Program-made: the position numbers and the translations under genes | Shown: piece by piece, positions 6,351-61,929 of the stretch | How the letters are laid out: each line of letters begins with the position of its first letter | Numbering within the stretch: position 1 is the stretch's first letter | The notes under the pieces: generated by a model | Told to the model about the DNA's origin: nothing | What the model saw: the letters and a program-made list of their open reading frames with translations, nothing else | Databases searched by the model: none | Assembly (NCBI RefSeq): GCF_023055435.1 | Contig: NW_025963846.1 | Coordinates: 14,880,001-14,944,000, forward strand | DNA length: 64,000 nt | Source: Haliotis rufescens | Lineage: Eukaryota | Direction: 5' to 3'

Positions 6351-7080
6351 AAATACTGCATTGAAGCAAGAGTGGAGAGTTCACTGTGGATAATGAAAAT
6401 TAACAATACTTATGGCTCAGAACGAATTGATGACCTTTCCCTGAAGTGTCAAAATCAAGAATGACCCCCTATCCTTGTTCACAGAGATCTTCCTACCGAT
6501 GACCGATCATAACATTTATATTTCATACATTTTTGTCGGAGAGTATAATATTGCTAGTTTTTCGTTGAATATGAATGTTTAATCGGCGATTAACCAGTAA
6601 AGGAATGCATCTAGTTGGAGAGACTTAAATTTACACGCACGTTAAGACGAATATACTCTGTTACTCGCTTCTGGTTATAAATCACTATCAGGCGTTCGCG
6701 AAAAGGTGAGCACCCGATGGCACCCGTCAACGTGCACTTGAAAGAAACCAATCAAAATTATCATAAAAACAAGAACGATTTTATTTTGCAGTAATATTAT
6801 ACTCTCACCAAATAAGCTGGTGAATGCAGCATATGAGGTTATGTATAAGATGCATAAATTGTAACAGAAGTTTTAATCTTATTTAAGCTATACCAGAGAG
6901 CACGGGGTTAAATTATGTATGGTGGTTATCTCAATCGCGATAAGTTACCAGCATTTCATGGTTGAAGCATAAAGTCGGAACAGCTCTAATAGGTCAATTC
7001 TTTCACGATTGAAGAAGAGAGATGACATCCTCTTCAAAAGGTATTTTTTATTCCATGTTTTAGAAGTTACAAGTGAACAA

Positions 7081-7192
7081 CCGGGGTAGAATAGGTCTTC
7101 AGCAACCCATGCTTGCTTTAAGAGGCGACTGTGCTTGTCGTAAGAGACGACTAACGGGATTGGGTGGTCAAGCTCGCTGACTTGGTTGATGC
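7081..7192 (+). mobile_element. Family C retroposon, 5' fragment
   Basis: CCGGGGTAGAATAGGTCTTCAGCAACCC...GTCGTAAGAGACGACTAACGGG matches the copy at 23402. Confidence 0.8.
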
Positions 7193-7387: not shown

Positions 7388-7560
7388 TGAGTGAGTGAGT
7401 GAGTGAGTGAGGTTTTACGCCGCTTTTAGCAATATTCCAGCAATATCACGGCGGGGGACACCAGAAATGGGCTTCACACATTGTACCCATGTCGGGAATC
7501 GAACCCGGGTCTTCGGCGTGACGAGCTAACGCTTTAACCACTAGGCTACCCGACCGCCCC
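7388..7560 (-). mobile_element. tRNA-Asp-like SINE, family A
   Basis: Head GTAGCCTAGTGGTTAAAGCG...GTCACG...GGTTCGATTCCC and (ACTC)n tail. TSD GGGTAAGTAGAG at 7376..7387 and 7561..7572. Confidence 0.92.
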
Positions 7561-13131: not shown

Positions 13132-13900
13132 CTTTCATAAGAAATATCTGCCCAAAACAGAATCGATTTTACGATTCCGACAATGTAATATGTAAATGTT
13201 TATGAAGCACTATCACATAGCGACAATACCAGGTGTTCGCGAAAAGGTAAGCATTTCCTGCCAGGTCGCTGGCACAATGTCGATCCCGATCCTAAATGCA
13301 GAACTTGTTGATATTCAACGTTGGCAGAAAGCAGAGCTTGTTGGGGATAGTCTAAAATATATCCATGAGATTTGCATTTTCAATTACATTGATAATTGAC
13401 AAATGTTATATTTGGGGTAACACCTTCTCAGTAAAGAACAAATTCTTTACAAAGAGAAGTTATGCCAATGGCAACATTTGTTACATTAGACCACTTTCTA
13501 AATGGCGTTTTGTATTCATTGATAATTGATGTGAAGACTGCCGGAGGGTTGTATGGACGGAAGAGAAGAGATATATTGTTTCTATATTGATATAGTTGTG
13601 TGTGGTAATGTCATAGAAAGGACAGTGGTTAAAATCATGCATATAATGTGCAGTGAAAACGCAGCAGTTTATATCGTAACGATAGCCAATGGTAATTGTC
13701 CTGTAATTATAATCATGCATTTAAACACCGCGCCGACCAAGTAAGTTGTCACTCTTTAGGTCAGCGCCAACCTGTGTTTGTTATAAAGGCCTTACATACA
13801 AAAAGATTTCTGTTCGATCTCATGTAGTCAGTCTTTGACCTTGCTACGCCGTTACTTTCTTAACTATACTTAGGATAGTACATGGCAGAAGTGACAGTAC

Positions 13901-14105
13901 GTCTTCAGCAACCCACTGCTTGTCGTGAGAGGCGCCTAACGGGATCGGGTGGTCAGGCTCACGGACTTGGTCAATGCATGTCATCGTATCCCAAATGCGT
14001 GGATCGAGGCTCAAGGTGTCAATAACTGGATCGTCTGTCTACAGGCCGGAATATTGCTGACTGTGGCGTTCAACAACAAACAAACAAACAAACAAACAAA
14101 CAAAC
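13901..14105 (+). mobile_element. Family C retroposon, degenerate
   Basis: CTTCAGCAACCC...CTAACGGGATCGGGTGGTCAGGCTC...(AAAC)n tail. Confidence 0.8.
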
Positions 14106-14530: not shown

Positions 14531-14800
14531 TTGGTTGGTTGGTTTGCTGTTTAACGCCGCACTCAGCAATATTCTAGCTATATATATATGAAGGCGGTCT
14601 GTAAATAATCGAGTGTTGACCAGACAATCCAGCGATTGACATCATGAGCATCGATCCACGCAATTGGGATCGATGAAATGCATCAACCAAGTCAGCGAGC
14701 CTGACCACCCTATCCCGTTAGTCGCCTCTTACGGCAAGCATAGTCGCCTTTTACGGCAAGCATGGGTTGCTGAAGACCTATTCTACCCCGGATCTTCACG
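14531..14800 (-). mobile_element. Family C retroposon, full length
   Basis: Begins CGTGAAGATCCGGGGTAGAATAGGTCTTC on the minus strand and ends GCGGCGTTAAAC(AACC)n. Confidence 0.88.
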
Positions 14801-20209: not shown

Positions 20210-20765
20210 GGTTGTCATTTATAAAGATAATAAGTGGTCTATAAGTCCTGCCCTCTTAGTCAGCTTTCTGTGCACATTAATCCTTTATGTGCTTCATTCT
20301 CCAATATCTAAATCAACATGTAATCTAGTTCTTTTGAAAATAAATCTGCAGATATCTATCCCCTCAAAGTGAGTTGTGGATTGTAAACACAGTTTAACTA
20401 TGTAACTTGTCGGATGAACTTCAACAATAAGCTCTGAAAGGACCAGGCTTCGTGGGTTATCTTAATGAAATAATTAATTTTGCTTGACGCGGCTGGGCGA
20501 AAGGGTAAAGAAATATAAAGGCGCCCTTAAAATAACCAAGTCTGAACAAGCCAACTAGTGATTGGGAGAAAGAGCTGCACGTCATCATCGCAATGACACG
20601 CAGTCAGCCAAATCCAAGAGCCTGACCACCTGACCCGTATCTACCGGCTGTGACGGCATACATAGGATACTGTGGACTGCCCAGGGATACAGGGATGTTA
20701 TACTCCAGCAAAAATGACTTGAATGACCTGAATAGCTATATTTATCTACCAGGGCCCTCTACCAG

Positions 20766-20872
20766 GGCCCACTTGCACAAAACGATCTTAGCGCTACGAT
20801 TATTGTAAGCCTATGTTAAAGTATGGGAGTTAAGATCATCTTAGCGCTAAGATCGCTTTGTGCAAGTGGGCC
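20766..20872. mobile_element. PIF/Harbinger-like MITE
   Basis: TIRs of about 35 bp GGCCCACTTGCACAAA(A/G)CGATCTTAGCGCTA with 3-bp TSD CAG. Confidence 0.78.
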
Positions 20873-20879
20873 CAGATGT

Positions 20880-21342
20880 AGTGCCAGGCTGTCTCAGTCC
20901 ATGACAAGAAAGTGGAGACATACAGAATACAGAGGTCAACATCACCAGTTGGGCCCGTGAGTCACCGCCTTCTGGCATAAGGCTCTAGGCAGTTTATTCC
21001 ACCCAATAGTGTGAATTCATACAGGTTAAACATGACCAAGACCAAAATATACATTAAAATACAAGACGCGTGTGCATATACAATATTACGTACAGGGCTT
21101 GGCATGACCAGCCGATTGTAAAGACCGGCCCATCTTACCACCTGTTTTGGCGAAGTAAGGGTCAAAGTAGTGTGTTTGGCAAAGGAACACAGTTCCTGGA
21201 ACCTGTGCCCTCAACTACCAGAATCCCGTCCTCCACCGACACAGGGGCGCAACCCACGGCAAAAAGGGTTGCCCAATTTAGTCGCCTCATACGATCAGCA
21301 ATGGGGTGTTGAGGACACATTCTACCCCGGGTCCACATGGGG
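20880..21342 (-). mobile_element. Putative 5'-UTR fragment of a longer retroelement that shares the family C 5' motif
   Basis: Minus strand starts CCCATGTGGACCCGGGGTAGAATGTGTCCTCAACACCCC...CGTATGAGGCGACTAAATTGGG, then continues with sequence unrelated to family C. Confidence 0.6.
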
Positions 21343-21530
21343 AATATACGTGATGAATGTGGACATGTTAGTGAAAGCATGTCATATACGTGATGTATAT
21401 TGACATGTAAGTGATCGCACACTATATACGTGGTGAACGTGAACATGTTATTGATGGTGAGCTATATGCGTGATTTATTGTTGGCATATTGGCATGATCT
21501 ATTTATACAGATGGACAGGTTATACATCAC

Positions 21531-21615: not shown

Positions 21616-22193
21616 CTGAAAAGAAGACCAACATTCATAGGCTTTGTCGTACCATGGTTTCTGGGCCGTTGGTAGATGTCAATTTTTTTCTCTCAAGTCA
21701 GTGTCAATAGTATCGGTCGTATCAGATTCAATTTAGTGAAACAGGCGTTACGTGAAGAGATTAAAGTCTCCACCCGAAAATGTCATCTCACATAAACGAA
21801 TTCTGTTCCGGTGAATTTCTTAACCATTTAATAAAAAAACGTCGCCTCAGTGTTAGAATGTGATTCAATGAAATATGTTTAGGGGTCCATATTTGAACAG
21901 GGTAAGTTTCACTCGTTCACGTGAGTATCACATCATACAGCCCAATCTAGCGGCTTAAATAGTTTTTGTCTTGAGATCAGACTGTTTATATAATTTCTAT
22001 TAACCGTAAACAAAATCGATCGTCATGTTGTACGAACTACATGCGGCGGTATCGGACGTTACACGGACAACGTGGATACCATGCAATATCTCTACTCCTT
22101 TATGTAGGCATCATGTAAGTAAAGGGAACGGAATTGGCCGAGTAGTCATTCATAGGAAAACAAGGTTCATTCTGGCGATGATATTCCAGTTCG

Positions 22194-22412
22194 TTTGTTG
22201 TTCATCGCTGCACTCAGCAATAGCCAAGCTTCATGACAGCGGTCTGTACACATTCGAGTCTGGTCCAGACAATCCAGTGATTGACATCATGAGCATTGAT
22301 CTTCGCAGATGACATGCATCAACCAAATTAGCGAGCCTGACCACCTGATCCCGTTTGTATGGGTGACATGTATGGGTTGCTGAAGACACATTGTATCCCG
22401 GACCTTCACGGG
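22194..22412 (-). mobile_element. Family C retroposon
   Basis: Starts CCCGTGAAGGTCCGGGATACAATGTGTCTTCAGCAACCC; internally deleted. Confidence 0.82.
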
Positions 22413-22679
22413 TGTATTTGGCAGTAGAAGCCATACCGAGACATCCGTCCCTTACCGACCAGGATCCGCTTGAGGGAGAGGGTAGAGGTGTCCATTCCCC
22501 CGATCTGCCTTGGTCTGGCCACATACCCGTGCTCGCGAAATTCCAACATTAAGCTGACATATACGATTTCGAAAAAAATATAGAGCCATACATTAATCAG
22601 TTATGCCATGATTATAGTATTATGAAAGAAAAGGGTGGTTATAAACTTTTTACGTATTTATATAACGCCATTACACAAC

Positions 22680-23181: not shown

Positions 23182-23401
23182 TTACCGGTGCTTTTTGATT
23201 CAACACTAGGGATCAGGCCGCCATTGTTCCATCAAACATCATCACTAGTAAATATGCAAATAGACGGTCTCTGAGTTAAAAGCTTGCATTAATAACCTTC
23301 CTATTCGCAAGGCCAACCTTATTTCAAGTTTCAGTATTTCCATTAAGTTTATGTTTTATTCATAGCGAAAGTATACGGTCTATTTCACATTTAAAAAAAT
23401 A

Positions 23402-23640
23402 CCCGTGAAGATCCGGGGTAGAATAGATCTTCAGCAACCCATGCTTACCGTAAAAGGCGACAATGCTAGTCGTAAGGGGCGACTAAAGGGATCGTGTGGT
23501 CAAGCTCGCTGACTTGCATTTGCGTATATCGAGGCTCTAGATGTCAATAACTGGATTGTCTGGTCCAGACTCGATTATTTACAGACCGCGGTCATAGCTG
23601 GAATATTGCTTAGTGCAGCGTTAAACAACAAACAAACAAA
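23402..23640 (+). mobile_element. Family C retroposon, near full length, no tRNA head
   Basis: CCCGTGAAGATCCGGGGTAGAATAGATCTTCAGCAACCC...GCTGGAATATTGCT...GCGTTAAAC(AAAC)n. Confidence 0.88.
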
Positions 23641-23736
23641 TCAAATCCAGATAGTTAACAAAGGGGTATGTTCCTCCCGGCTTTTACATGGATGGGGGCT
23701 AAACCGATATGGTTGCCAACGGACTACACATGTACG

Positions 23737-25649: not shown

Positions 25650-26141
25650 GGTACACAGTCGGATAGTGTAAAGTTAGTGACCAAGTTAGGAGCACGACAT
25701 TTTGAACAGTATGTTCACGATACATGAATATGACGACGTCTTAGCTTAATGTGGGAGAAAAGTTCGACGTGATGCAGATCTTAGATATTTGCCACTTTGG
25801 TGAAACCCACGAGCACGGGTGTGATGCTTACAGACCAAGGTTACATCTGGTAGGTTAACTAGTGACTTGGATCAATGTGTGTCCCATCTCCAAGTAGTGA
25901 ATGGGTACCCGGTAGGATTAGGTGACATGTGATTGCTGACCTTCTAGCATCCGACATACACTTGAGTTCTCTCGATGGAGAATGATATATAAGTGCACAT
26001 GGATTCATTACTTATGGTCCGACACTGACACACCCCTGGAGCCCGACCTTGCAAGAGTTGACGCTTAATGACACTGCTTACTTTTATTATTATCATGATT
26101 GTCATTTGTATCATTATATTTGTATAATTATTATTACTTAC

Positions 26142-26456
26142 CGATGGCATATGTGACGCGCTTGCATGGTTCCAGCCAGAGGCAGCCACCATTCCAGAAG
26201 GAGCCGTTGTCGAGTTGTCGTAGTTGAGCTCGCATTGTCCCGCCTTGAAGTTCAAGCTGACGCAGCGAGACTGCTGCAAACATGACGTCACACAGTCCTG
26301 TAGGGTGAGGGTCTGAAGCACGAGGTAGACTGACCCCACGAGTCTACTACCAGCCATGAGCCCGGGGGTGTTAACCCCTCGACTGCATGTCCCCGTGACT
26401 TGACCACATCCTGTCATCAGCTCCACAAGCAACATTGTTGTCAGAAAGCTTTTCAT
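26142..26456 (-). CDS. Exon 1 of putative secreted PAN/apple + EGF-like protein, paralog 2
   Basis: Same 105-codon exon as 2067..2381 (one amino-acid change, S/G). Donor TCG|GTAAGT at 26142/26141. Confidence 0.85.
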
Positions 26457-28529
26457 TTTATAACTTCTTCAGATTAATGTCCACACGTTTGTCTTGAAAG
26501 CTGAGTTTAAAACCCGTTCTTGTTACCTCCCATTCACTTGTAGATATTACAACATCACTATGTTGTGACAATGATTAGTTTGACAACATATCATTAAAGG
26601 AAAATATCACTCCAAAGACTCTGCGTCCGTGTTGCCTACAATGCTCTGCATGGTTGAAACAGAGGGCACTGAGTTGGTCTGCCTCGGAGTACCCGTCATT
26701 GATCGTCGTCTTCTTATCCATCTAGAACATAGTTGCACGCATCCAAGACTGGCTTTTAACAAAACGGTAAAATATATACAGTTTAATTCCTTGTGGAGAA
26801 CATTGGTAAACTAGACGGCATCAATAGCAGAAAGACAACGAACGTGACTATCAGTTCACGCCACAATATAACAGGTCCGTGAAATGACACAAGGCTTGAT
26901 TGATTTCTGACTTCATGCAACAGTTACTCAGCTTCCAACGATTGATTGTTTTCTCTATACGCCCTGACATAAAGGTATTACTTTCCATGATGACAACATC
27001 TTCCAACTACCCATTTCGTTTCAATGACATACCACAAGCCAGAACCCTTAGCAAGTGCACCTGCGGCAAACAGTGCTGTTGGTAAGGGAGAGTGGTAAGT
27101 GTTCAACAAGCATATGCAGAATGGAATATTTCGTGAACCTTCACAACCTGTTACCATTCAGAACCATATCCTTGAACACGTTCATGTATAAAGCATGGCA
27201 AAAGTAAGTACTCGAAAGAGGCAGATTCACTTTCTTCATCCGTGATGACACGGCGGTGCAGTTTCAATCTCCCTCAGGACCTGTATCTTCGAGCAAACAT
27301 GGGAAAGAAAGCCGAATTGTCGCACAGGAGACAGCTCAAGAATCTCCTGAACAGCCGCATATTTTGTAAAACAATCACCGTGTTGATCCAAGAATTAACA
27401 TGGTCCCCATTGAAAGGATAACGATTCCGTCACCGTCCGACGTCGTTGTTTTCTACGTCAGGATGAAACGTTATCTCGCTTTCAAACACTAGACAATAAT
27501 CTATGAAACTTCCTACAGGAACAAAGAAGCATTTCCAGTTTTAAACAAACTGACGCCAGGAAGCCAGCTTGTTTGTCAGGTTATCGGTTGGCTCTAGGTG
27601 CTGAGACACTATTGACCAATGAGCGTGAGGTTGCCAACGCGCGTGTGACGTTACTAATTAAACTAATACCGTTAACAAATATGCCTATTATTATCCAGCG
27701 CTACCCGTGAGATCTGGAATACATCGGTAATCTAATCTATGGCAAATGAAGGACTTCCCACACTTCAAGATCGATAAACAATAAATTGAAGAAAGGACAC
27801 GATTATTCGGATGTAGCGTCTAGCTTTTCTAGCTGAGATTTCACCTGTACTAAAGTCCCCAAACAATATGGTTTTTTTTAATGAGATGTTGTTGTCGTTG
27901 CTCAATGACATTCGTATGAGAATTTTTTTGGACATACTTTACCCATGTTAATTTTATTTGAGGGGAAATTCTTCATACTTCATAGTGAGTTTTCAGGGAG
28001 GGTTCAAGGGGTCTTTCTTCGACGACCTAAATGTATAGCAGTATGCTATTGGTATACATAATTATGTTTCTCATACTGTTCGCGGAGGACATGTTTTATG
28101 CTGAGTCAGCTGCAAAAGATATGTTTGGGCGGAGACTTTAAAACTGCGCTCAACTGTGTTGCAAAACGAATATTCCTTAACGTTTTTCTTTACTTATGAA
28201 TAGCAAAATATCTGAACTTGTACACAGCAGACGTAATTCAAATTAAACTTACCATTTTTATTTGTTTCAACAAAATCAGTAATGGTACTCTCGTGTCACT
28301 GGATTTTCTGGGTCATCGATCACTTGTTTGTCGGGTTTGTTTATAGGCTAACGTCGCAAGGCAGGAGTACTGCTGTGCTGCGTCAGGCAAAAATTATTTT
28401 TTTAGGCAAATTGTATGAATGGCGGGGGCTACCGCTAGGGCAGGACATGTTTACCCTTTTCGAACACCTGGTACCATCACTCATTTTCAGTGATCCATTC
28501 ATAAAATTTCCACTGCTATTTTCCCTTTA

Positions 28530-35395: not shown

Positions 35396-35640
35396 CGTGA
35401 AGATCCGGGGTAGAATAGGTGTTCAGCAACCCATGCTTGCCGTAAAAGGCACTATAAGTGATAGAGATGACTAACGGGATCGGGTGGTCAGACTCGCTGA
35501 CTTAGTTAATTACCTCTCATCGTATCCCAATTGATCGATGCTCATTCACTGGATTGTCTGTTCCAGACTCGATTATTTACAGACCGCCGTCATATAGCTG
35601 GAATATTGCTGAGTGTGCATACAAACAAACGGACAGACAA
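35396..35640 (+). mobile_element. Family C retroposon
   Basis: CGTGAAGATCCGGGGTAGAATAGGTGTTCAGCAACCC... Confidence 0.85.
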
Positions 35641-36147
35641 AACAAAGTATATATATTTATCAGTATGCTCGACATCGACCCCTAGTGGTTGCAGTCGCTA
35701 ATAACACAGGTTCCAGTCACGAAATATCATTTAACATTTGACAAACGACATTGGAACAACGATGACACAGTATGATCGTCATTGAGAGCATACAAGGCGT
35801 ACAATTGTGGCAGATTCTGATAGAACTGAAAGGTGCGGTTATACTACTCAACTTTTGATAGCGATAATTATGAGAATAAGATTTATCATCCAAAACTGGC
35901 TCCCACAGGAGATATCGCTTGGATGAGATCAAGCGATATCTACACTGTAGATATCGCTGCAATGAAATTACATCACAATGCTTTGCAGACCATTGTGACA
36001 TCACTGGTTACCATGACGTCACAATCAAATGACATCACTAATGGCTCTGCTACTGAAGCCGTTTGCAGTACTTTTTACACTGAAGACACTACTAATTACT
36101 GTCTACAAATTGAAAAAGTTGAAAGAATGATGTTGGATGATAAATAA

Positions 36148-37486: not shown

Positions 37487-37635
37487 CTTCTGCCTCCAAC
37501 AGACAGGTCTATTGCAGCCTCAGTGATTTGTAGCATCGTTATCCTGTGTTGTTGGAGCGTTCTCGACAACTGTAAAACTTTTACTTACTATCCTTTTCAA
37601 TTGAGTCTTAGGTTTTTCAAAACTTCCTAGTAGCC

Positions 37636-38490
37636 ATGGACGCCATCAAGAAGAAGATGCTCTCAATGAAGTCCGACAAGGACAACGCACTTGAAAAATC
37701 CGAGATGTTGGAACAGCAACTTAAAGACATTGAGGAACAGAAGGCTAAGGTTGAGGAGGACCTCCACGATCTCCAGAAGAAATTCTCCAACCTCGAGGTA
37801 GAATTTGACAACGTCAACGAACAGCACCAGGAGGCAAATGCCAAGTTGGAGACATCTACCAAGAGAGTCACCGAGATGGAACAAGAGGTCAGTAGTACGT
37901 CCTCCAGGGCTACCATGTTGGAGGAAGATCTGGAGAGGTGCGAGGAGAAACTGCAGACAGCCACTATCAAGCTGGAGGAGGCATCCAAGGCTCAGGATGA
38001 GACGGAGAGGTCACGCAAAGTTCTGGAGAATAAGAGCAGTGCTGACGATGAGCGCATCGATCAGCTAGAAACTCAACTGAAGGACGCTAAGTATATCGCC
38101 GAGGAAGCTGAAAGAAAGTATGACGAAACTGCCCGTAAGTTAGCCATGACAGATTCCGATCTGGAGCGAGCTGTCACCCGTTTTGAGGCTGCTGAAACCA
38201 AATCCATTGAACTGGATGAAGAGTTGAAGGTCGTTGGAAACAACGTGAAGTCCCTTCAGATCAGCGAGCAGGAAGCTTGCCAAAGAGAGGAGACTTTCGA
38301 GGAGACCGTCAAAGACCTGACCCACAAGCTCAAGGAGTCGGAGCACCGCGCTGTGGAGGCTGAGAGGACAGTGTCCAAACTCCAGAAGGACATCGACCGC
38401 CTGGACGATGAGCTACTTACAGAGAAGGAGAAGAACAAGGCCATCCATGACGAGTTGGACCAGACATTCGCCGAGCTCGCCGGATACTAA
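37636..38490 (+). CDS. TPM: Tropomyosin, intronless divergent isoform (copy A), 284 aa
   Basis: MDAIKKKM start, 284 aa, C-terminus [20 protein letters not shown] motif. Single uninterrupted ORF with GCCATGG start context. Confidence 0.97.
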
Positions 38491-44560: not shown

Positions 44561-45415
44561 TTAGTATCCGGCGAGCTCGGCGAATGTCTGGTCCAACTCG
44601 TCATGGATGGCCTTGTTCTTCTCCTTCTCTGTAAGTAGCTCATCGTCCAGGCGGTCGATGTCCTTCTGGAGTTTGGACACTGTCCTCTCAGCCTCCGCAG
44701 CGCGGTGCTCCGACTCCTTGAGCTTGTGGGTCAGGTCTTTGACGGTCTCCTCGAAAGTCTCCTCTCTTTGGCAAGCTTCCTGCTCGCTGATCTGAAGGGA
44801 CTTCATGTTGTTTCCAACGACCTTCAATTCTTCATCCAGTTCAATGGATTTGGTTTCAGCAGCCTCAAAACGGGTGACAGCTCGCTCCAGATCGGAATCT
44901 GTCATGGCTAACTTACGGGCAGTTTCGTCATACTTTCTTTCAGCTTCCTCGGCGATATACTTAGCGTCCTTCAGTTGAGTTTCTAGCTGATCGATGCGCT
45001 CATCGTCAGCACTGCTCTTATTCTCCAGAACTTTGCGTGATCTCTCCGTTTCATCCTGAGCCTTGGATGCCTCCTCCAGCTTGATAGTGGCTGTCTGCAG
45101 TTTCTCCTCGCACCTCTCCAGATCTTCCTCCAACATGGTAGCCCTGGAGGACGTACTACTGACCTCTTGTTCCATCTCGGTGACTCTCTTGGTAGACGTC
45201 TCCAACTTGGCATTTGCCTCCTGGTGCTGTTCGTTGACGTTGTCAAATTCTACCTCGAGATTGGAAAATTTCTTCTGGAGATCGTGGAGGTCCTCCTCAA
45301 CCTTAGCCTTCTGTTCCTCAATGTCTTTAAGTTGCTGTTCAAACATCTCGGATTTTTCAAGTGCGTTGTCCTTGTCGGACTTCATGGAGAGCATCTTCTT
45401 CTTGATGGCGTCCAT
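44561..45415 (-). CDS. TPM: Tropomyosin, intronless (copy B), 284 aa
   Basis: Differs from copy A at only 3 residues (L25F, V204M, V240A). Confidence 0.97.
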
Positions 45416-45527
45416 GGTTACTTGGTTGGTGGTGAGTCGTTAATCTAAACGGAAAGTACTTTATACTACAAAGTTGTAGAGATAATCTCAAGGAGCGGAC
45501 TGTAGGTTGTTGACGGCGGGAGGCGAA

Positions 45528-49466: not shown

Positions 49467-49632
49467 AGTGAGTGAGTGAGTATGGTTTTACGCCGCTGTT
49501 AGCAATATTCCAGCAATATCACGGCGGGGGACACCAGAAATGGGCTTCACACATTGTACCCATGTCGGGAATCGAACCCGGGTCTTCGGCGTGACGAGCG
49601 AACGCTTTAACCACTAGGCTACCCGACCGCCC
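49467..49632 (-). mobile_element. SINE family A
   Basis: Full length; TSD GATGGAATAT(G/A)GAG. Confidence 0.92.
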
Positions 49633-52399: not shown

Positions 52400-53254
52400 T
52401 TAGTATCCGGCGAGCTCGGCGAATGTCTGGTCCAACTCGTCATGGATGGCCTTGTTCTTCTCCTTCTCTGTAAGTAGCTCATCGTCCAGGCGGTCGATGT
52501 CCTTCTGGTGTTTGGACACTGTCATCTCGGCATCCGCTGCGCGGTGCTCCGAGTCCTTGAGCCTTTGAGTCAAGTCTGCGATGGTCTCCTCAAACGTCCC
52601 TTCTCTCTGGCTAGCCTCCTGCTCGCTGATCTGAAGGGACTTCATGTTGTTTCCAACGACCTTCAATTCTTCATCGAGTTCAATGGTTTTGGTTTCAGCA
52701 GCCTCAAAACGGGTGACAGCTCGCTCCAGATCGGAATCTGTCAGGGCTAACTTACGGGCAGTTTCGTCGTACTTACTTTCAGCTTCCTCGGCGATATGTT
52801 GAGCATCCTTTAGTTGATTTTCTAGCTGATCGATGCGCTCATCGTCAGCAATGTTCTTGTTTTCCAGAACTTTGCGTGACCTCTCCGTCTCATCCTGAGC
52901 CTTGGATGCCTCCTCCAGCTTGATAGTAGCTGTCTGCAGTTTCTCCTCGCACCTCTCCAGATCTTCCTCCAACGTGGTAGCCCTGGAGGACGTACTACTG
53001 ACCTCTTGTTCCATCTCGGTGACTTTCTTGGTCGACGTCTCCAACTTGGCATTGACCTCCTGGTGCTGCTCGTTGACGTTGTCAAATTCTACCTCGAGGT
53101 TGGAAAATTTCTTCTGGAGAGCATGGAGGTCCTCCTCAACTTTAGCCTTCTCCTCCTCGATGTCTTTAAGTTGCTGTTCCAACATCTCGGCATTTTCGAG
53201 CGCGCTGTCCTTGTCAGACTTCATGGAGAGCATCTGCTTCTTGATGGCGTCCAT
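52400..53254 (-). CDS. TPM: Tropomyosin, intronless (copy C), 284 aa
   Basis: Intact ORF; 29 amino-acid differences from copy A by manual count. Confidence 0.97.
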
Positions 53255-53396
53255 GGCTAGTTGGAAGGTGTTGTGGCGTAAAATGAAACGGAAAGTAGTT
53301 TAGATTACAAAGTTGTAGAGATAATCTTAACAACCGAGCGACGAATTGCTTATTCAGGTAAGAACTGAGAGCGGACCGTTGGTTGTTGACGGCGGA

Positions 53397-53437: not shown

Positions 53438-53916
53438 CTACAGACTGAACCTCATATGGTATTATAGACAGAGATGGCCAGCGCCATCTTTGAAACGACC
53501 CCCTGCCACTGGGCCAGTGTACCTCTCCCTGTACCGGCGGGGGGTGCATCTGTTAGACCATGTGCTCTACCCGTGTACATCGTCTTCTTATATCATTACA
53601 TGGATATTTCTTACGGAGAAAGTATACATCAAACGTTGCACCATTAATGGAGAATATCACAGCGCTATTAAGTAATTATCATGTCCACCTGTATACATAC
53701 GAGGATTGGGTAGCACCCATGCGACATCTGGATTACGGAGCGGCTGTTTTCAATGTCCATTGGTAAAGGGTCGGGTTGGGTCCCCGGGGCGGATTGGGTC
53801 CCCGTGGTTCACACTGAAACGGGAGATGTCTGTAATAGTATATGTTTTCTGTTTCATATATTCAGTAGGTTTCTGTTTTTGTAGGTTTTGTGCATGTTGT
53901 ATGTGAAGGTGTATCT

Positions 53917-54040
53917 TTGTTTGTTTGTTGTTTAACGCCGCACTCAGAAATATTTAAGCTATATGACGGCGGTTTATAAATAATCGAGTCTGGAACAGAC
54001 ATCCCAGTGATAATGATCACGAGCATCGATCTACGCAATT
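53917..54040 (-). mobile_element. Family C retroposon, 3' part
   Basis: GATCGATGCTCGTGATC...GCGGCGTTAAAC(AAAC)n. Confidence 0.8.
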
Positions 54041-54469
54041 GGAGTTGGTGTATGTGGTGTACCACTTCCATGCTTCTAATCCAGTAAATCTTCTTTAATT
54101 CCCACTCATTCAGAAAAATACATTTGATTTACAACTGAGAATATTCCTTTTATACGATTATATATCTTTAAGACTGCCCCCGTGGTCTGGGGGATAGAGC
54201 CTCTGGCGTCTGGCCGGATAGAGGAAGGTCGGTGGAGACGTTAACCCCAATTCACCTCACCTCACCTATACGTTCAGAAAGTAAGCACTTCAAAGTCGAA
54301 AACAAACAAAATATACAAGCAAACTCGAAAATTAAAACCTGACATCTGTTTTATAGAACAACAAACATAAATTTAACTTATATTTATTCTATTCATACTA
54401 TGTTATACACCACAGTATAATCATTTCAGCATGAAAAACCCAGTTTTTTTCTTTGCCGTAGATTTAGAA

Positions 54470-55653: not shown

Positions 55654-56321
55654 GTATGACATGATTGCACCACGGCGGTATATTTGTTCCTCTTTGTCGC
55701 CGTGAAAATAACTGAAATACTTCCCAAAGAGACTTTAAAACCAACTCACTCACTTAAATATATATATAAAACGCCAGTCTCTATTATCTACCGATACAGA
55801 TTCCATAGCGCATAAAAGGCAAACTAGCGATGAAAATAATATGAATGGATTACTGAAAATCGGTGATGACGCCAGGTATTGTGCACTCCCAGTCGAACCC
55901 ACCACTCGCACAATTTCGATAAAATAGTGAGTGTTGTCTGACAACGCGCAGCAACACTCCTGTCATACGGTTGTGGCATATACAATCGAGTCTTACCAGA
56001 CACTCACGTGATAGATCAGACTGTCCTACGCACGATAGCGCATTTACTGATTTTGTTGAAACTAAAACGATTATGTTACTTTTGAATAACGTCTGCTTCA
56101 AAGACACACCTGCAAATTTACAGTAATGCTTTATGATATAATTCTTATTTGAGAAATCTTTTACATATGCAATGCGAAAATAAAAATATTTGTATTGATA
56201 TTTTGTTGTTGTTGTTTTTATGTATTTGTATGTTGTTAGTCTAGTCCACTTGGGAATAAGGGGAACAGGTAGGGGATTATCTGCCCACTGGACCATGAAC
56301 TGTGTTGTTTTAAACTGTTAT

Positions 56322-56494
56322 TGTTGTTTGTTTAAAGCCGCACTAGGCAATATTCCAGCTGTATGACGGCGGTCTGTAAATAATCGAGTCTACGCACTTG
56401 AGATACGACGACATGCATCAACCATGTCGGCGAGCCTGACCACCCGATTTCGTTAGTCGCCTCTTACGACAAACACAGTCACCTTTTACAGCAA
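56322..56494 (-). mobile_element. Family C retroposon, deleted copy
   Basis: GTCGTAAGAGGCGACTAACG...CTGGAATATTGCC. Confidence 0.78.
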
Positions 56495-59437
56495 GTTTAA
56501 AACTGTATAGTGGTGATTTGGGGAGGATGTCGGGTTTTTTCCGTTGCTTGTTTGTAGTATGATCAGAGTCATTGTGATTGTGTATACGCGATGTGATGCT
56601 GATGGTCGACAGACTGTAATTATGGCACAACGGGGTGCCTTTTCAATACATTAGTCAGGAGTGCACCGAGAGTTATTGCTTTATCTTATGTAATAAGCTA
56701 TGGCGGTTTGCCCTACACGTGCCGAATGCTACCGTGTGTATCAAGTTACGACATTTCTCGCGCACTTGCCATGTCTGAGATCCCCGGGCATATGTGCTGC
56801 ATTTCGTGTATAGAGTGAAATAACAGATCTTCAATAGCATGTTAGAAATACACTGAAATACACAATGCCATTTAGAAAGTGGTCAAACGTAACAAATCTT
56901 ATTTTGGGATAACACTTTCTTAGTGAAGTACAGATTTTCGTACTTTTTTGGGATGAGTCCTTGGACAGAGCCCCCAAAAGTACGAGAATCTGTACTTTAC
57001 TGAGAAAGTGTTATCCCAAATCAGAGACCATACATTTGTTACGTTAGAAATACACTGGTAACTAAACTGATGAAACCAATTTGCATTTGAGCAAAATCAT
57101 ACGGCCTCCTATATTCAAAGAGTTGACCATGGCTACCCACATTGTGTGAATGCATGAAAAATAAACATGATGTCAAGAAACAGGGTTTAATGGAAATCAC
57201 ACTTCATAATTCCTTGTTCCTGAAAAACTAGTTCCGCAATCCGTTTTAACGGTGGTTTCACTTTTGTAAGAACTCATATTTGTAACTCACAAACGAAAGA
57301 GTTCTAAATTCGTCTGCAAGCAGGTGCGTTGTCTCACGATGCTGATAAAAGTAAGAATTGTCAAAGTCATGACGTAATTAAAGTTGATAACACCTTGCTA
57401 CTAAACATTTATCGAGACAATTTCAATGTAAACACCTGTGATCTTGGAGGCCATTTAGAAAGGTTTGTAAACAACCGTGGGAGCTTTTCAGACGTGCTTA
57501 CTTCACTGGTTTACAAACCGATTTCGAGAGTGTCAAAGTCATACGAAGAAACAGAGACCATTTCTCCAGAAGAAAGTACCTGATGTTGAAGTAAATCTAG
57601 CTTTCTTTTGACGCTAGATGCTACACAGGGCAGCTGGCCAAGGACTCCTTGAAGGAGATGTGGAGCTTTGTCATTTTGATTATAACAATGTTATGTAAAT
57701 GTTTCATTTACAAAATTGTGTCGATCTACACTACATTTACAGAAATGTTCTTAAATGTATCTATTTGCATTTGTTATCGAAGCCATTTCATAAGATTTTA
57801 CCCCCATGTCAGTTCCGTGTCATAATTCTTTGTTCTGGTCACAAGACACGACTAAATGGATCGGGTGCAATACTCCCTACTTAGATCCAAGTCTACCGAG
57901 TCTATGCATAGTCCAATCACAATCACATAATGATATCAACATCCGGTTCATAAACTGCCGAGCAGATTTCGGTCGATTGCAGGATTTGCAATGCATGTGT
58001 TTCGTCAACTTAGAGTCAACCAATATTTTTCCAATCTTTTCATGTTTTTAAAAAAATCAACGTGATCAAGTGATTTGATGCACTTGGCAAAGTACGATCC
58101 GTTGTATTACAATATAGATCTTGATTATCGATCAGATCATCGTCACTGGGTGCCGTCGTTTTGTTTGAAGCAAAGCTAGTGATATGAGAGATGGAATCTG
58201 ATTGGTCAATATGAGGGACATAGAAGGGACATAACCCGTAATAGCCATTGGTGGCTCTACGATCGTGCCCAGAAGTTCCAGCCTAGTTCGGCAAGGGTGG
58301 AAACTGGACTTATACAGTCAGTTAACTCCATTGTCTCGGGAAGATGCAGTTGAACTGTTACGATTCACTAGCGTATTCGGTGACTAGAACTGTATCCTTT
58401 CATGAATTGAATTCATTAATCGTGGTCACTAGAATCGAGTATTTACAAAACAAAAATGAAAAGAGATTTTTTAACTTGAAGTTGTCTGTTATTTATAAAA
58501 AGCAAGATATGCAAAATGGAATATATACAAGCCATGCAGTAGTACGTTGTGTGGGTCATCTACAACTCCAGTTCAGTCAACGGCTGATTGTCCATAATGC
58601 TCATGAGTTATTTGGACCCCAAAGGTAGTGTTGTGGCGTTTGATCACTGTTTGTTTTTTTGCAACCATGATTATGCAGACATGTGCATTTACATAACCTG
58701 TACCTGTACAAAATACAGAAGAACTTATTATATGCCTACGTAGATTTCTTCAAAGACATCACTCTTATATATTTAATTTGACAGCAATGTGGTCATTGGA
58801 TATTGTCGCCCTTGAACAGATACTAGTACCTGGATAATGCAGTATATAAATGTATGATATTATAATAATAATTAACACTGTCAACATGGTCAAACCATGT
58901 AAAATAATTTATTTTGTTATTGTTTCACTGAATATAATAAATAATACATCAACTGCTGGCTTGTTATTGTATTTGTATATAAATATTCATAATCGTTACC
59001 CTATATTCGTGATACGTATCGTATTCGCCTCATAGTGTATTCGTTGCAGCCCTAATTCTCAGTGAGATGTGATGTTCACACCAATGTATATTTTACAAGT
59101 GAAGAATAAGGCATTCCAACATTAAAATCCCATGTCACTGGATGTCTTTTTAATTCTTTACAGCTGTAACTTTTTTCTACATTTTACTGAGCGCATTCAA
59201 AAACGAAACCCTTCATACACAGACGGGTAGTTTGTGTGTCCCAGCCAGTTGATATGATGAGGCAAACAAGATGCAATCTAGTCTGGGATTTCACTTATTA
59301 GAAATGATGATATATTACACATTAAAACATGTTAAAAGAATTGTTACACAACCAAAAATTAAGAATATTTGATCCAGTTCAAGGGTATCATTTGTGATGT
59401 TTTTGTAATCATAATTTTGTGATTGGTATTTTCACAG

Positions 59438-60970: not shown

Positions 60971-61084
60971 TTATCAAATGGATTGATCTCCATCCACTAG
61001 ACCAAGGAGAAGGCCTCTGATTTGTTTTGGTCTTGTTAACCTCTCTGATGAAAGTCCTTATTTTAACCCTTTTATCTACCTGTT

Positions 61085-61283
61085 ATGCTTGTTGTAAGAG
61101 GCAACTTACGTGATCGGGTGGTCAGGCTCGCTGACTTGGTTGATGCATGTCATCGTATCCCACTTGCGTAGATCAATGCTCATGATGTCAATCACTGGAT
61201 TGTCTGGGCACGACTCGATTATTTACAGACTGCCGTCATATAGCTGGAATATGGCTGAGTGCGGCGTTATAAACAACAAACAA
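61085..61283 (+). mobile_element. Family C retroposon, 5'-truncated
   Basis: Match to the family C body and tail. Confidence 0.85.
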
Positions 61284-61455
61284 ATGATTGCAGGTCTACA
61301 TATTCGGCAGTGAGATGTTGCCCATAGTTTGATATCTAGCACTAGTTTGTCTGGTCTACGTATACGATGGTTACCTTCACCATTACAAATTATGGCTGAC
61401 ATCCAGCAGTATCGTTTTTCATACATCAAAATATATGATTGTTATATTCTTCCAG

Positions 61456-61578: not shown

Positions 61579-61622
61579 GTAAGCAGATTGTATAACAAAT
61601 ATCTGAGTCACATACTTTTTAA

Positions 61623-61851
61623 ATAGGTCTTTAGCAACCCGTAAAAGGCGACTTCGCTTGTCGTAAGAGGCGACTTACGGGATCGGATGGTCAAGCTCGC
61701 TGACTTGGTCGATGCATGTCAATTATCCCAATTGCCTGGATCGATGCTCATGGTGTCAATCACTGGATTGTCTGATCCAGACTTGATTATTTACAGACCG
61801 CCATCATATAGCTGGAATATTGCTGAGGGCGGCGTTAAACAACAAACAAAC
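61623..61851 (+). mobile_element. Family C retroposon
   Basis: ATAGGTCTTTAGCAACCC...GTCGTAAGAGGCGACTTACGGG... Confidence 0.85.
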
Positions 61852-61929
61852 TAATTGTATATGACTACTTGACAGCAACAAATCGACTGGATGGCCCCCA
61901 GACTAATTCTGTTTGACCTGTTCCTGCAG

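Follow-up and report, generated by a model that had tools for sequence, protein, structure and literature searches.

The locus analysed here raises the question of what a 71-nt motif does that two retroposon families share at or near their 5' ends. The motif was found at 21342-21272 (-) of the window, i.e. the whole stretch of 64,000 nucleotides of Haliotis rufescens DNA under study, exactly as a first-pass annotation had quoted it. That annotation considered it an uncharacterised, covarying and pseudoknotted RNA that defines the 5' end of both families, possibly by self-cleavage, or that serves as an internal promoter or translation element. Its sequence, however, had been described before: it is the LP ('LINE promoter') domain reported by Matetovici et al. 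2016 (PMC4758252), as far as the accessible text of that paper goes, purely as a sequence. The copy in the window and its parts are as follows.

21272..21342 (-): LP domain, decayed copy within a LINE 5' UTR fragment; 71 nt; 81.3 bits with model R1 (copy in the training set of this model)
21338..21342 (-): 5' strand of stem S1, with the start of the P2 loop as its predicted partner; in this copy, CpG decay has broken the first pair
21311..21336 (-): stem P2 (strands 21336-21330 and 21317-21311) with a 12-nt loop
21297..21310 (-): stem P3 with a C-rich loop, the loop being the 5' strand of the predicted second pseudoknot
21281..21295 (-): hairpin P4, near-invariant; 4 bp, 7-nt loop
21272..21277 (-): G-rich 3' strand, predicted partner of the P3 loop in the second pseudoknot
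20872..21342 (-): 5' UTR fragment of a LINE with endonuclease (APE), reverse transcriptase (RT) and RNase H; aligns with full copies from base 59, 88.6% to the copy L062
20681..20752 (-): second piece of the broken LINE 5' UTR fragment

The 12-nt loop of P2 holds the 3' strand of S1 as well as the conserved AGAAU tract. The LINE fragment is broken at its 5' end, where a 40-bp tandem repeat (21344..21448) adjoins it. At the 3' break of the fragment, a degenerate stretch resembling the LP-SINE body (20600-20680, -) was recognised by eye.

Several initial claims were borne out at this level. A search of Rfam matched no family over the head of either the LP-SINE or the LINE, and no tRNA gene was detected over either head, the only tRNA matches of the window (7484 and 49557) belonging to a different family. 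The 11-mer shared by both families occurred 7 times in the window, where chance would give 0.37 occurrences. The tRNA-headed SINE copies (7484-7555 and 49557-49628, -) displayed a tail in common with the LP-SINE.

In PMC4758252, LP-SINEs of Haliotis, Littorina and oysters, together with scallop SINE heads, are described as having about 70 bp in common with Nimb-17_LMi, I-3_DR and RTE-9_CPB; the carriers named are Hdi_LP, Hmi_LP, Lsa_2 and the scallop MESC heads. The promoter role was presumed there from position, the authors calling for experiments, and the transcription and 5' end of SINEs devoid of a small-RNA head were left open. The agreement with our elements is close: the same head of about 70 nt occurs in SINEs and in LINE 5' UTRs, and the published Haliotis SINE measures 255 bp and has target duplications. 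Scallop SINE copies begin at the same C-tract (PMC4758252, Fig S2), the block of 'Nimb-17 homology' in that figure holds the same P4 motif with 7 exact 8-mer matches and, compared by eye, the scallop head can form the same stems. A difference lies in position, as LP is placed at the very 5' end of the LINE in PMC4758252 but 58 nt inside it here. The accessible text of that paper contains no structure, experiment, viral carriers or upstream ribozyme; a structure model, such carriers and a ribozyme are presented in this analysis. Within the searchable literature, which leaves most subscription journals and Repbase outside, the term LP-SINE occurred in the 2016 paper only, Nimb and ribozyme were joined only by that same paper, and searches for motif strings and motif sharing returned nothing relevant. 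The LP sequence domain and the SINE family were therefore already known, whereas searches of that scope retrieved no earlier publication of the viral carriers, of the HDV-like ribozyme upstream or of the double-pseudoknot model.

Two retroposon families and an upstream ribozyme

The family of about ten copies initially labelled C is the LP-SINE, an element of approximately 250 bp. Besides the copy at 21272..21342, the covariance model detected 9 heads of this family in the window (E<=1e-4). The copies are listed below.

14531..14800 (-): LP-SINE copy with the 22-nt duplication
23401..23644 (+): LP-SINE copy with the 22-nt duplication
35396..35646 (+): LP-SINE copy, second repeat unit degenerate
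22189..22413 (-): LP-SINE copy, damaged head
7073..7192 (+): LP-SINE head, 3'-truncated, with the 22-nt duplication
13898..14095 (+): LP-SINE copy, 5'-truncated
56316..56495 (-): LP-SINE copy, 5'-truncated
61084..61284 (+): LP-SINE copy, 5'-truncated
61622..61855 (+): LP-SINE copy, 5'-truncated
53916..54042 (-): LP-SINE body and tail, headless

A strict pattern of the head matched the 1.33-Gb genome exactly at 1,607 sites, and its reversed control matched at 0. The sequence initially quoted for the family left out a 22-nt tandem duplication that the copies at 14800, 23402 and 7073 carry. This duplication, which comprises the P3 3' strand and P4, occurred in 32 of 56 SINE copies from the genome. 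In some SINE copies the repeat (14719-14763 in the window, as well as genome copies) reached at least three units.

The SINE boundaries were surveyed at 90 loci, which yielded 49 distinct copies with both ends. Exact target duplications of 8-14 bp flanked 23 of these and, in 19 of the 23, the 5' end was the same G, i.e. the first base of the S1 strand, located 2 bases before the C-tract. Tails consisted of CAAA-type short tandem repeats. Contigs from another sample stopped at the same two SINE positions (285 and 145 loose ends), which mark the boundary of the element and not a transcription start. Small-RNA reads on the SINE numbered only 21, too few for end mapping. When this genome was searched by pattern for other families bearing LP, the SINE and the present LINE were the only ones recovered. 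The tails of the SINE and the LINE are alike (25/33, terminal in both), but the likeness was not above that of shuffles (31 versus a maximum of 38) and so does not establish this LINE as the partner of the SINE.

The statement that the motif forms the 5' end of both families thus held for the SINE and failed for the LINE, whose full copies start 58 nt upstream of LP. These copies are about 6.15 kb long and display ORF1 and ORF2 (endonuclease, reverse transcriptase and RNase H); on the basis of domain order and the LP link, the element may be called Nimb-like. Proteins encoded by LINEs in this genome had their best matches among Haliotis proteins, which points to an abalone host. The 58-nt module (L063:46-103), which is missing from the window fragment, could be threaded as a minimal HDV-like ribozyme with a tiny P4, exactly at 41 of 58 loci, with substitutions at 13 and truncated at 4. 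The thread comprised a 7-bp P1 opening with G.U, P3 with a 7-nt L3, GG for P1.1, the catalytic C of J4/2, and P2. Compared with Rfam RF02682, the module reached 28.5 bits at E 0.0033, which falls short of the gathering score of 44. Target duplications of 12-14 bp adjoined G1 of the ribozyme in 5 of 8 fetched LINE copies. Both fold and junctions suggest that the LINE end is self-cleaved at this ribozyme.

The LINE form of the motif was matched 874 times in the genome, and in all 100 listed cases the sequence ran on, by eye, into the ribozyme 3' strand. In a survey of diverged LINE subfamilies (ORF1 down to 57% identical; 60 loci, 45 oriented, 9 of the 45 without an LP motif within 1 kb), the ribozyme was found almost unchanged upstream of LP in 36/36 motif-bearing copies. 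Ribozyme and LP form a cassette that is kept almost unchanged across LINE subfamilies, and no copy started at the LP domain among either the 100 listed or the 36 diverged ones.

HDV-like ribozymes were described at the 5' end of six clades (R1, R2, R4, RTE, Ingi as well as LOA) that, in the accessible text, do not include Nimb (PMC5786205, Kojima 2018). The 58-nt module resembles those retrotransposon ribozymes (PMC5786205) in that it adjoins the target duplication, upstream of LP; with this LINE, a Nimb-like lineage apparently joins those endowed with them. The LP motif itself is unlike HDV and separate from this module, so the initial ribozyme idea found its object in full LINE copies, immediately upstream of the motif for which it was proposed. 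That LP is a new self-cleaving ribozyme cutting at its own 5' side seems very improbable. Such cutting would fit the sharp SINE start and the predicted double pseudoknot; in the 3' half of the motif, the strands also follow one another as in HDV P1-P4-J4/2-P2, and the Rfam HDV model placed the tail of the motif on J4/2 in a weak match (E 0.42). However, the motif lacks the HDV P3/L3 core and matched no ribozyme family (none at E<=10, and none at E<=1 in a later search), the upstream ribozyme was lost in 0/100 listed and 0/36 diverged LINE copies, and cutting would sever the viral tails described below.

Further observations were made on the LINE. Its copies cluster on several contigs, and six of eight 9-kb stretches (L062, L063, L065, L066, L067 and L068) carried a second copy of the same family. 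In one small-RNA run, 85 antisense reads of about 30 nt had a common start base on the LP P2 hairpin (L063:109-138) and were piRNA-like; two sister runs had 0 and 1 reads on this stretch. The sequence directly 3' of LP was also conserved, as judged by eye, between the abalone (L063:180-330) and a bivalve LINE (L179:860-1000), which suggests a further module.

Carriers in viruses and metagenomes

A search with only the P4 18-mer uncovered 6 IMG/VR contigs representing 5 distinct viruses. In all six, the 18-mer lay downstream of a capsid or polymerase-like frame and the contig ended 14-83 nt past it; the upstream stem and the AGAAU loop, both outside the search pattern, were present in every one. 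With further patterns, the set grew by two RNA viruses that have polymerase domains and by one DNA-virus contig of 212,482 bp, in which the motif is intergenic between two genes, on the coding strand (L157:1186-1259). In the reciprocal search with the 5' pattern, P2 formed 6-7 of 7 pairs in 7 of 29 matches, and all 7 carried the P4 half, outside the pattern, with at most 2 mismatches; the other 22 displayed at most 5 P2 pairs and at least 5 mismatches in the P4 half. Looser viral patterns gave chance phage matches (10, 15 and 22), which were taken as controls. A covariance model built from 9 non-viral copies scored 8/8 viral carriers at 37.7-65.6 bits, against at most 23.8 for 23 chance loci.

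In 4 of the 7 RNA viruses the motif started 4-22 nt past the final stop codon, the distance being 72-197 nt in the other 3. Tandem copies were encountered in 2 of the 7 viruses (L104 and L107) and in L073. Conserved structured 3'-UTR RNAs of unrelated viruses are a familiar phenomenon, e.g. the 3' cap-independent translation enhancers, the upstream pseudoknot domain of tobamoviruses and the mobile s2m element. To our knowledge, none of these three is known as a SINE head. The Rfam search gave no match of the motif to any of them.

Additional carriers from metagenomes were a LINE-like element of a second kind, one SINE-like element, and two copies in tandem ahead of an ORF. In L069:66-728, a 10-bp tandem repeat precedes the LP domain, which opens a further LINE-like element; the frame displays an NPGP motif resembling that of 2A peptides. 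The GTDB search gave 4 matches, of which 3 were chance and 1 was a LINE. This LINE (L179:786-1647), with LP domain and ORF1 homology, occurred in a bacterial gill-symbiont assembly from a bivalve and is probably host contamination. The Rfam search found no HDV-like module upstream of this bivalve LP copy.

Predicted fold and covariation

Alignment A2 comprised 14 carriers, i.e. retroposons, seven RNA viruses and one DNA virus. Over P2, P3 and P4, 92.8% of 209 cells were paired, versus 69.9% in shuffled (0/500) and 30-55% in slid alignments; the 11-row pairing test was performed without L157, L158 and L106 (pattern) and without L006 and the window copy (same lineage). Changes on both sides were recorded for 6/6 pairs of P2 and 3/4 pairs of P3. 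P4 hardly varied, leaving little covariation support for its pairing. The LINE subfamilies themselves swap one P2 pair, A-U for C-G, and the inner stem with its A-U to G-C change, put forward in the first-pass annotation, is real. The general claim of a structured, covarying RNA common to two retroposon families was thereby upheld for P2 and P3, its pseudoknots being predicted.

The partners of the remaining strands turned out differently. Two C-tracts and two G-tracts allow two alternative pairing schemes, and the initial description had swapped them for both the closing stem and the loop pseudoknot. Pairing of the 5' strand, made up of the first 4-5 nt, with the start of the P2 loop (S1, fixed register) gave 57 pairs versus 44.6 in strand swaps (fraction <0.0001), and position 1 of S1 was Watson-Crick in 14/14 carriers (10 G-C, 4 C-G). 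Pairing of the P3 loop with the 3' strand, the second pseudoknot, gave 51 pairs versus 44.0 (fraction 0.008). Registers were set by hand in 5 of the 14 carriers, the 9 unadjusted ones giving fractions of 0.005 for S1 and 0.024 for the second pseudoknot; carriers are few and these statistics ignore kinship among them. The alternative partners were tried and rejected: the 5' strand paired with the 3' tail no better than in strand swaps (fraction 0.21), and the P2 loop with the P3 loop at fractions of 0.24 for Watson-Crick pairs and 0.04 when G-U was included. On the non-viral copies, RNAalifold likewise arrived at the swapped partners but did not recover P2; single-sequence folding of the motif gave no signal (z -1.0 to +1.3). 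The change from CCCG/CGGG to CCCA/UGGG, initially read as covariation of a closing stem, reflects CpG decay, since among 117 LINE copies CCCA occurred in 5 and CCCG in 109, most of the latter with UGGG. Likewise, the 'extension' of GGGU/ACCC to GGGGU/ACCCC is not covariation, cross-lineage swaps giving it no support. The predicted fold therefore comprises a 5' H-type pseudoknot (1-nt linker, 7-bp P2 and an A-rich second linker) and, 3' of it, another pseudoknot around P4. Conserved loop letters were invariant across carriers.

Because the changes preserve pairing and RNA viruses have no DNA stage, the motif acts as RNA. The same two observations bear on the internal RNA polymerase II promoter proposed from position by Matetovici et al. 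2016 (PMC4758252), in which LP would act as DNA, possibly with an additional RNA role like that of Pr77 from the trypanosome element L1Tc, which is both promoter and ribozyme (PMC3383444). In favour of a promoter, LP is 5'-terminal in the SINE, whose first base is a purine and which is devoid of a tRNA head. However, compensatory changes keep pairing rather than sequence, the viral carriers are not accommodated, and the LINE end coincides with the first base of the ribozyme. We consider this explanation improbable.

Candidate functions of the domain

Any function we infer for the LP domain draws on its positions, distribution and covariation. We tentatively favour, while holding it somewhat short of probable, a roadblock to 5'-to-3' exoribonucleases (Xrn1/Xrn2), because it is the single role that would account for the SINE start together with the viral tails. 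Trimming of a read-through transcript would stop at the foot of the knot and thereby give the SINE a sharp start without a tRNA promoter. Viral RNA would be reduced to a short tail RNA, and LP would protect the uncapped RNA of the LINE, whose end would be cut by the ribozyme. The position at the SINE start, the placement close behind the stop codon in 4 of 7 RNA viruses and the tandem copies of three records are roadblock-like.

Known exonuclease-resistant RNAs (xrRNAs) offer a comparison. In flaviviruses, they open the 3' UTR as double pseudoknots that hold the 5' end by pairing (PMC11702639), and xrRNAs make coding or non-coding RNAs (PMC11702639, PMC6299227). As described in the accessible parts of these sources, classes 1-3 resemble the predicted fold of LP in their pseudoknots and 5'-end pairing. 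They lie at the start of viral 3' UTRs and occur in tandem or intergenic copies; LP lies within 22 nt of the stop codon in 4 of 7 RNA viruses and is tandem in 2 of 7. LP differs from them in strand order and secondary structure, in occurring also in cellular retroposons and a DNA virus, and in that its resistance is a proposal. No xrRNA family of Rfam matched the motif, and the secondary structure of classes 1, 2 and 3 was not recovered in it.

Some observations count against a roadblock. The gap of 72-197 nt between stop codon and motif in 3 of 7 RNA viruses is one of them; the invariant loop letters fit protein binding equally, and the fold matches no Rfam family. Moreover, no LINE copy starts at LP, i.e. 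a trimmed LINE RNA leaves no trace as template. The latter may be excused because Xrn1 removes RNA with a 5'-phosphate and spares the 5'-OH products of ribozymes (PMC8782182). Such sparing, however, leaves the near-unchanged LP of the LINE unexplained, for which a role in translation is the better explanation.

That role would be a protein-binding translation enhancer, a substitute for cap or poly(A) recruiting initiation factors or ribosomes. It would be active in viral 3' UTRs and, in the LINE, at the 5' end of an RNA that the ribozyme has cut and that bears no cap; the SINE would use it for docking near nascent reverse transcriptase. Several groups of carrier viruses probably lack a cap or a poly(A) tail. 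An enhancer could be used independently of position, agrees with the invariant loop letters, and would account for an LP conserved behind the ribozyme in LINE subfamilies with as little as 57% identity in ORF1, where it does not set the 5' end; ribozyme-cut RNAs are translated without a cap (PMC13725137). Alone, it leaves unexplained both the sharp 5' start of a non-coding SINE and the involvement of the terminal bases in the predicted pseudoknot. We regard it as rather unlikely, though a serious candidate, and the roadblock and translation roles are not exclusive.

Were the LP domain resistant to Xrn1, it would add a class of xrRNA outside viruses, an open possibility named in PMC11702639. 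Whatever its role, a predicted double pseudoknot of 70 nt that is present in retroposons and unrelated viruses and absent from Rfam constitutes a new family to model. A fold common to RNA viruses also bears on how SINEs devoid of a small-RNA head acquire a defined 5' end.

Two other features of the window were recorded. Three intronless open frames of about 290 aa (37612-38490, +; 44561-45439, -; 52400-53299, -), which we take to be tropomyosin-like, are possibly retrocopies or the product of a local expansion. Near-identical exon-like frames with a signal peptide and a cysteine pattern occurred at 2010-2414 and 25944-26468 (-), each beside a 26/54-bp minisatellite.
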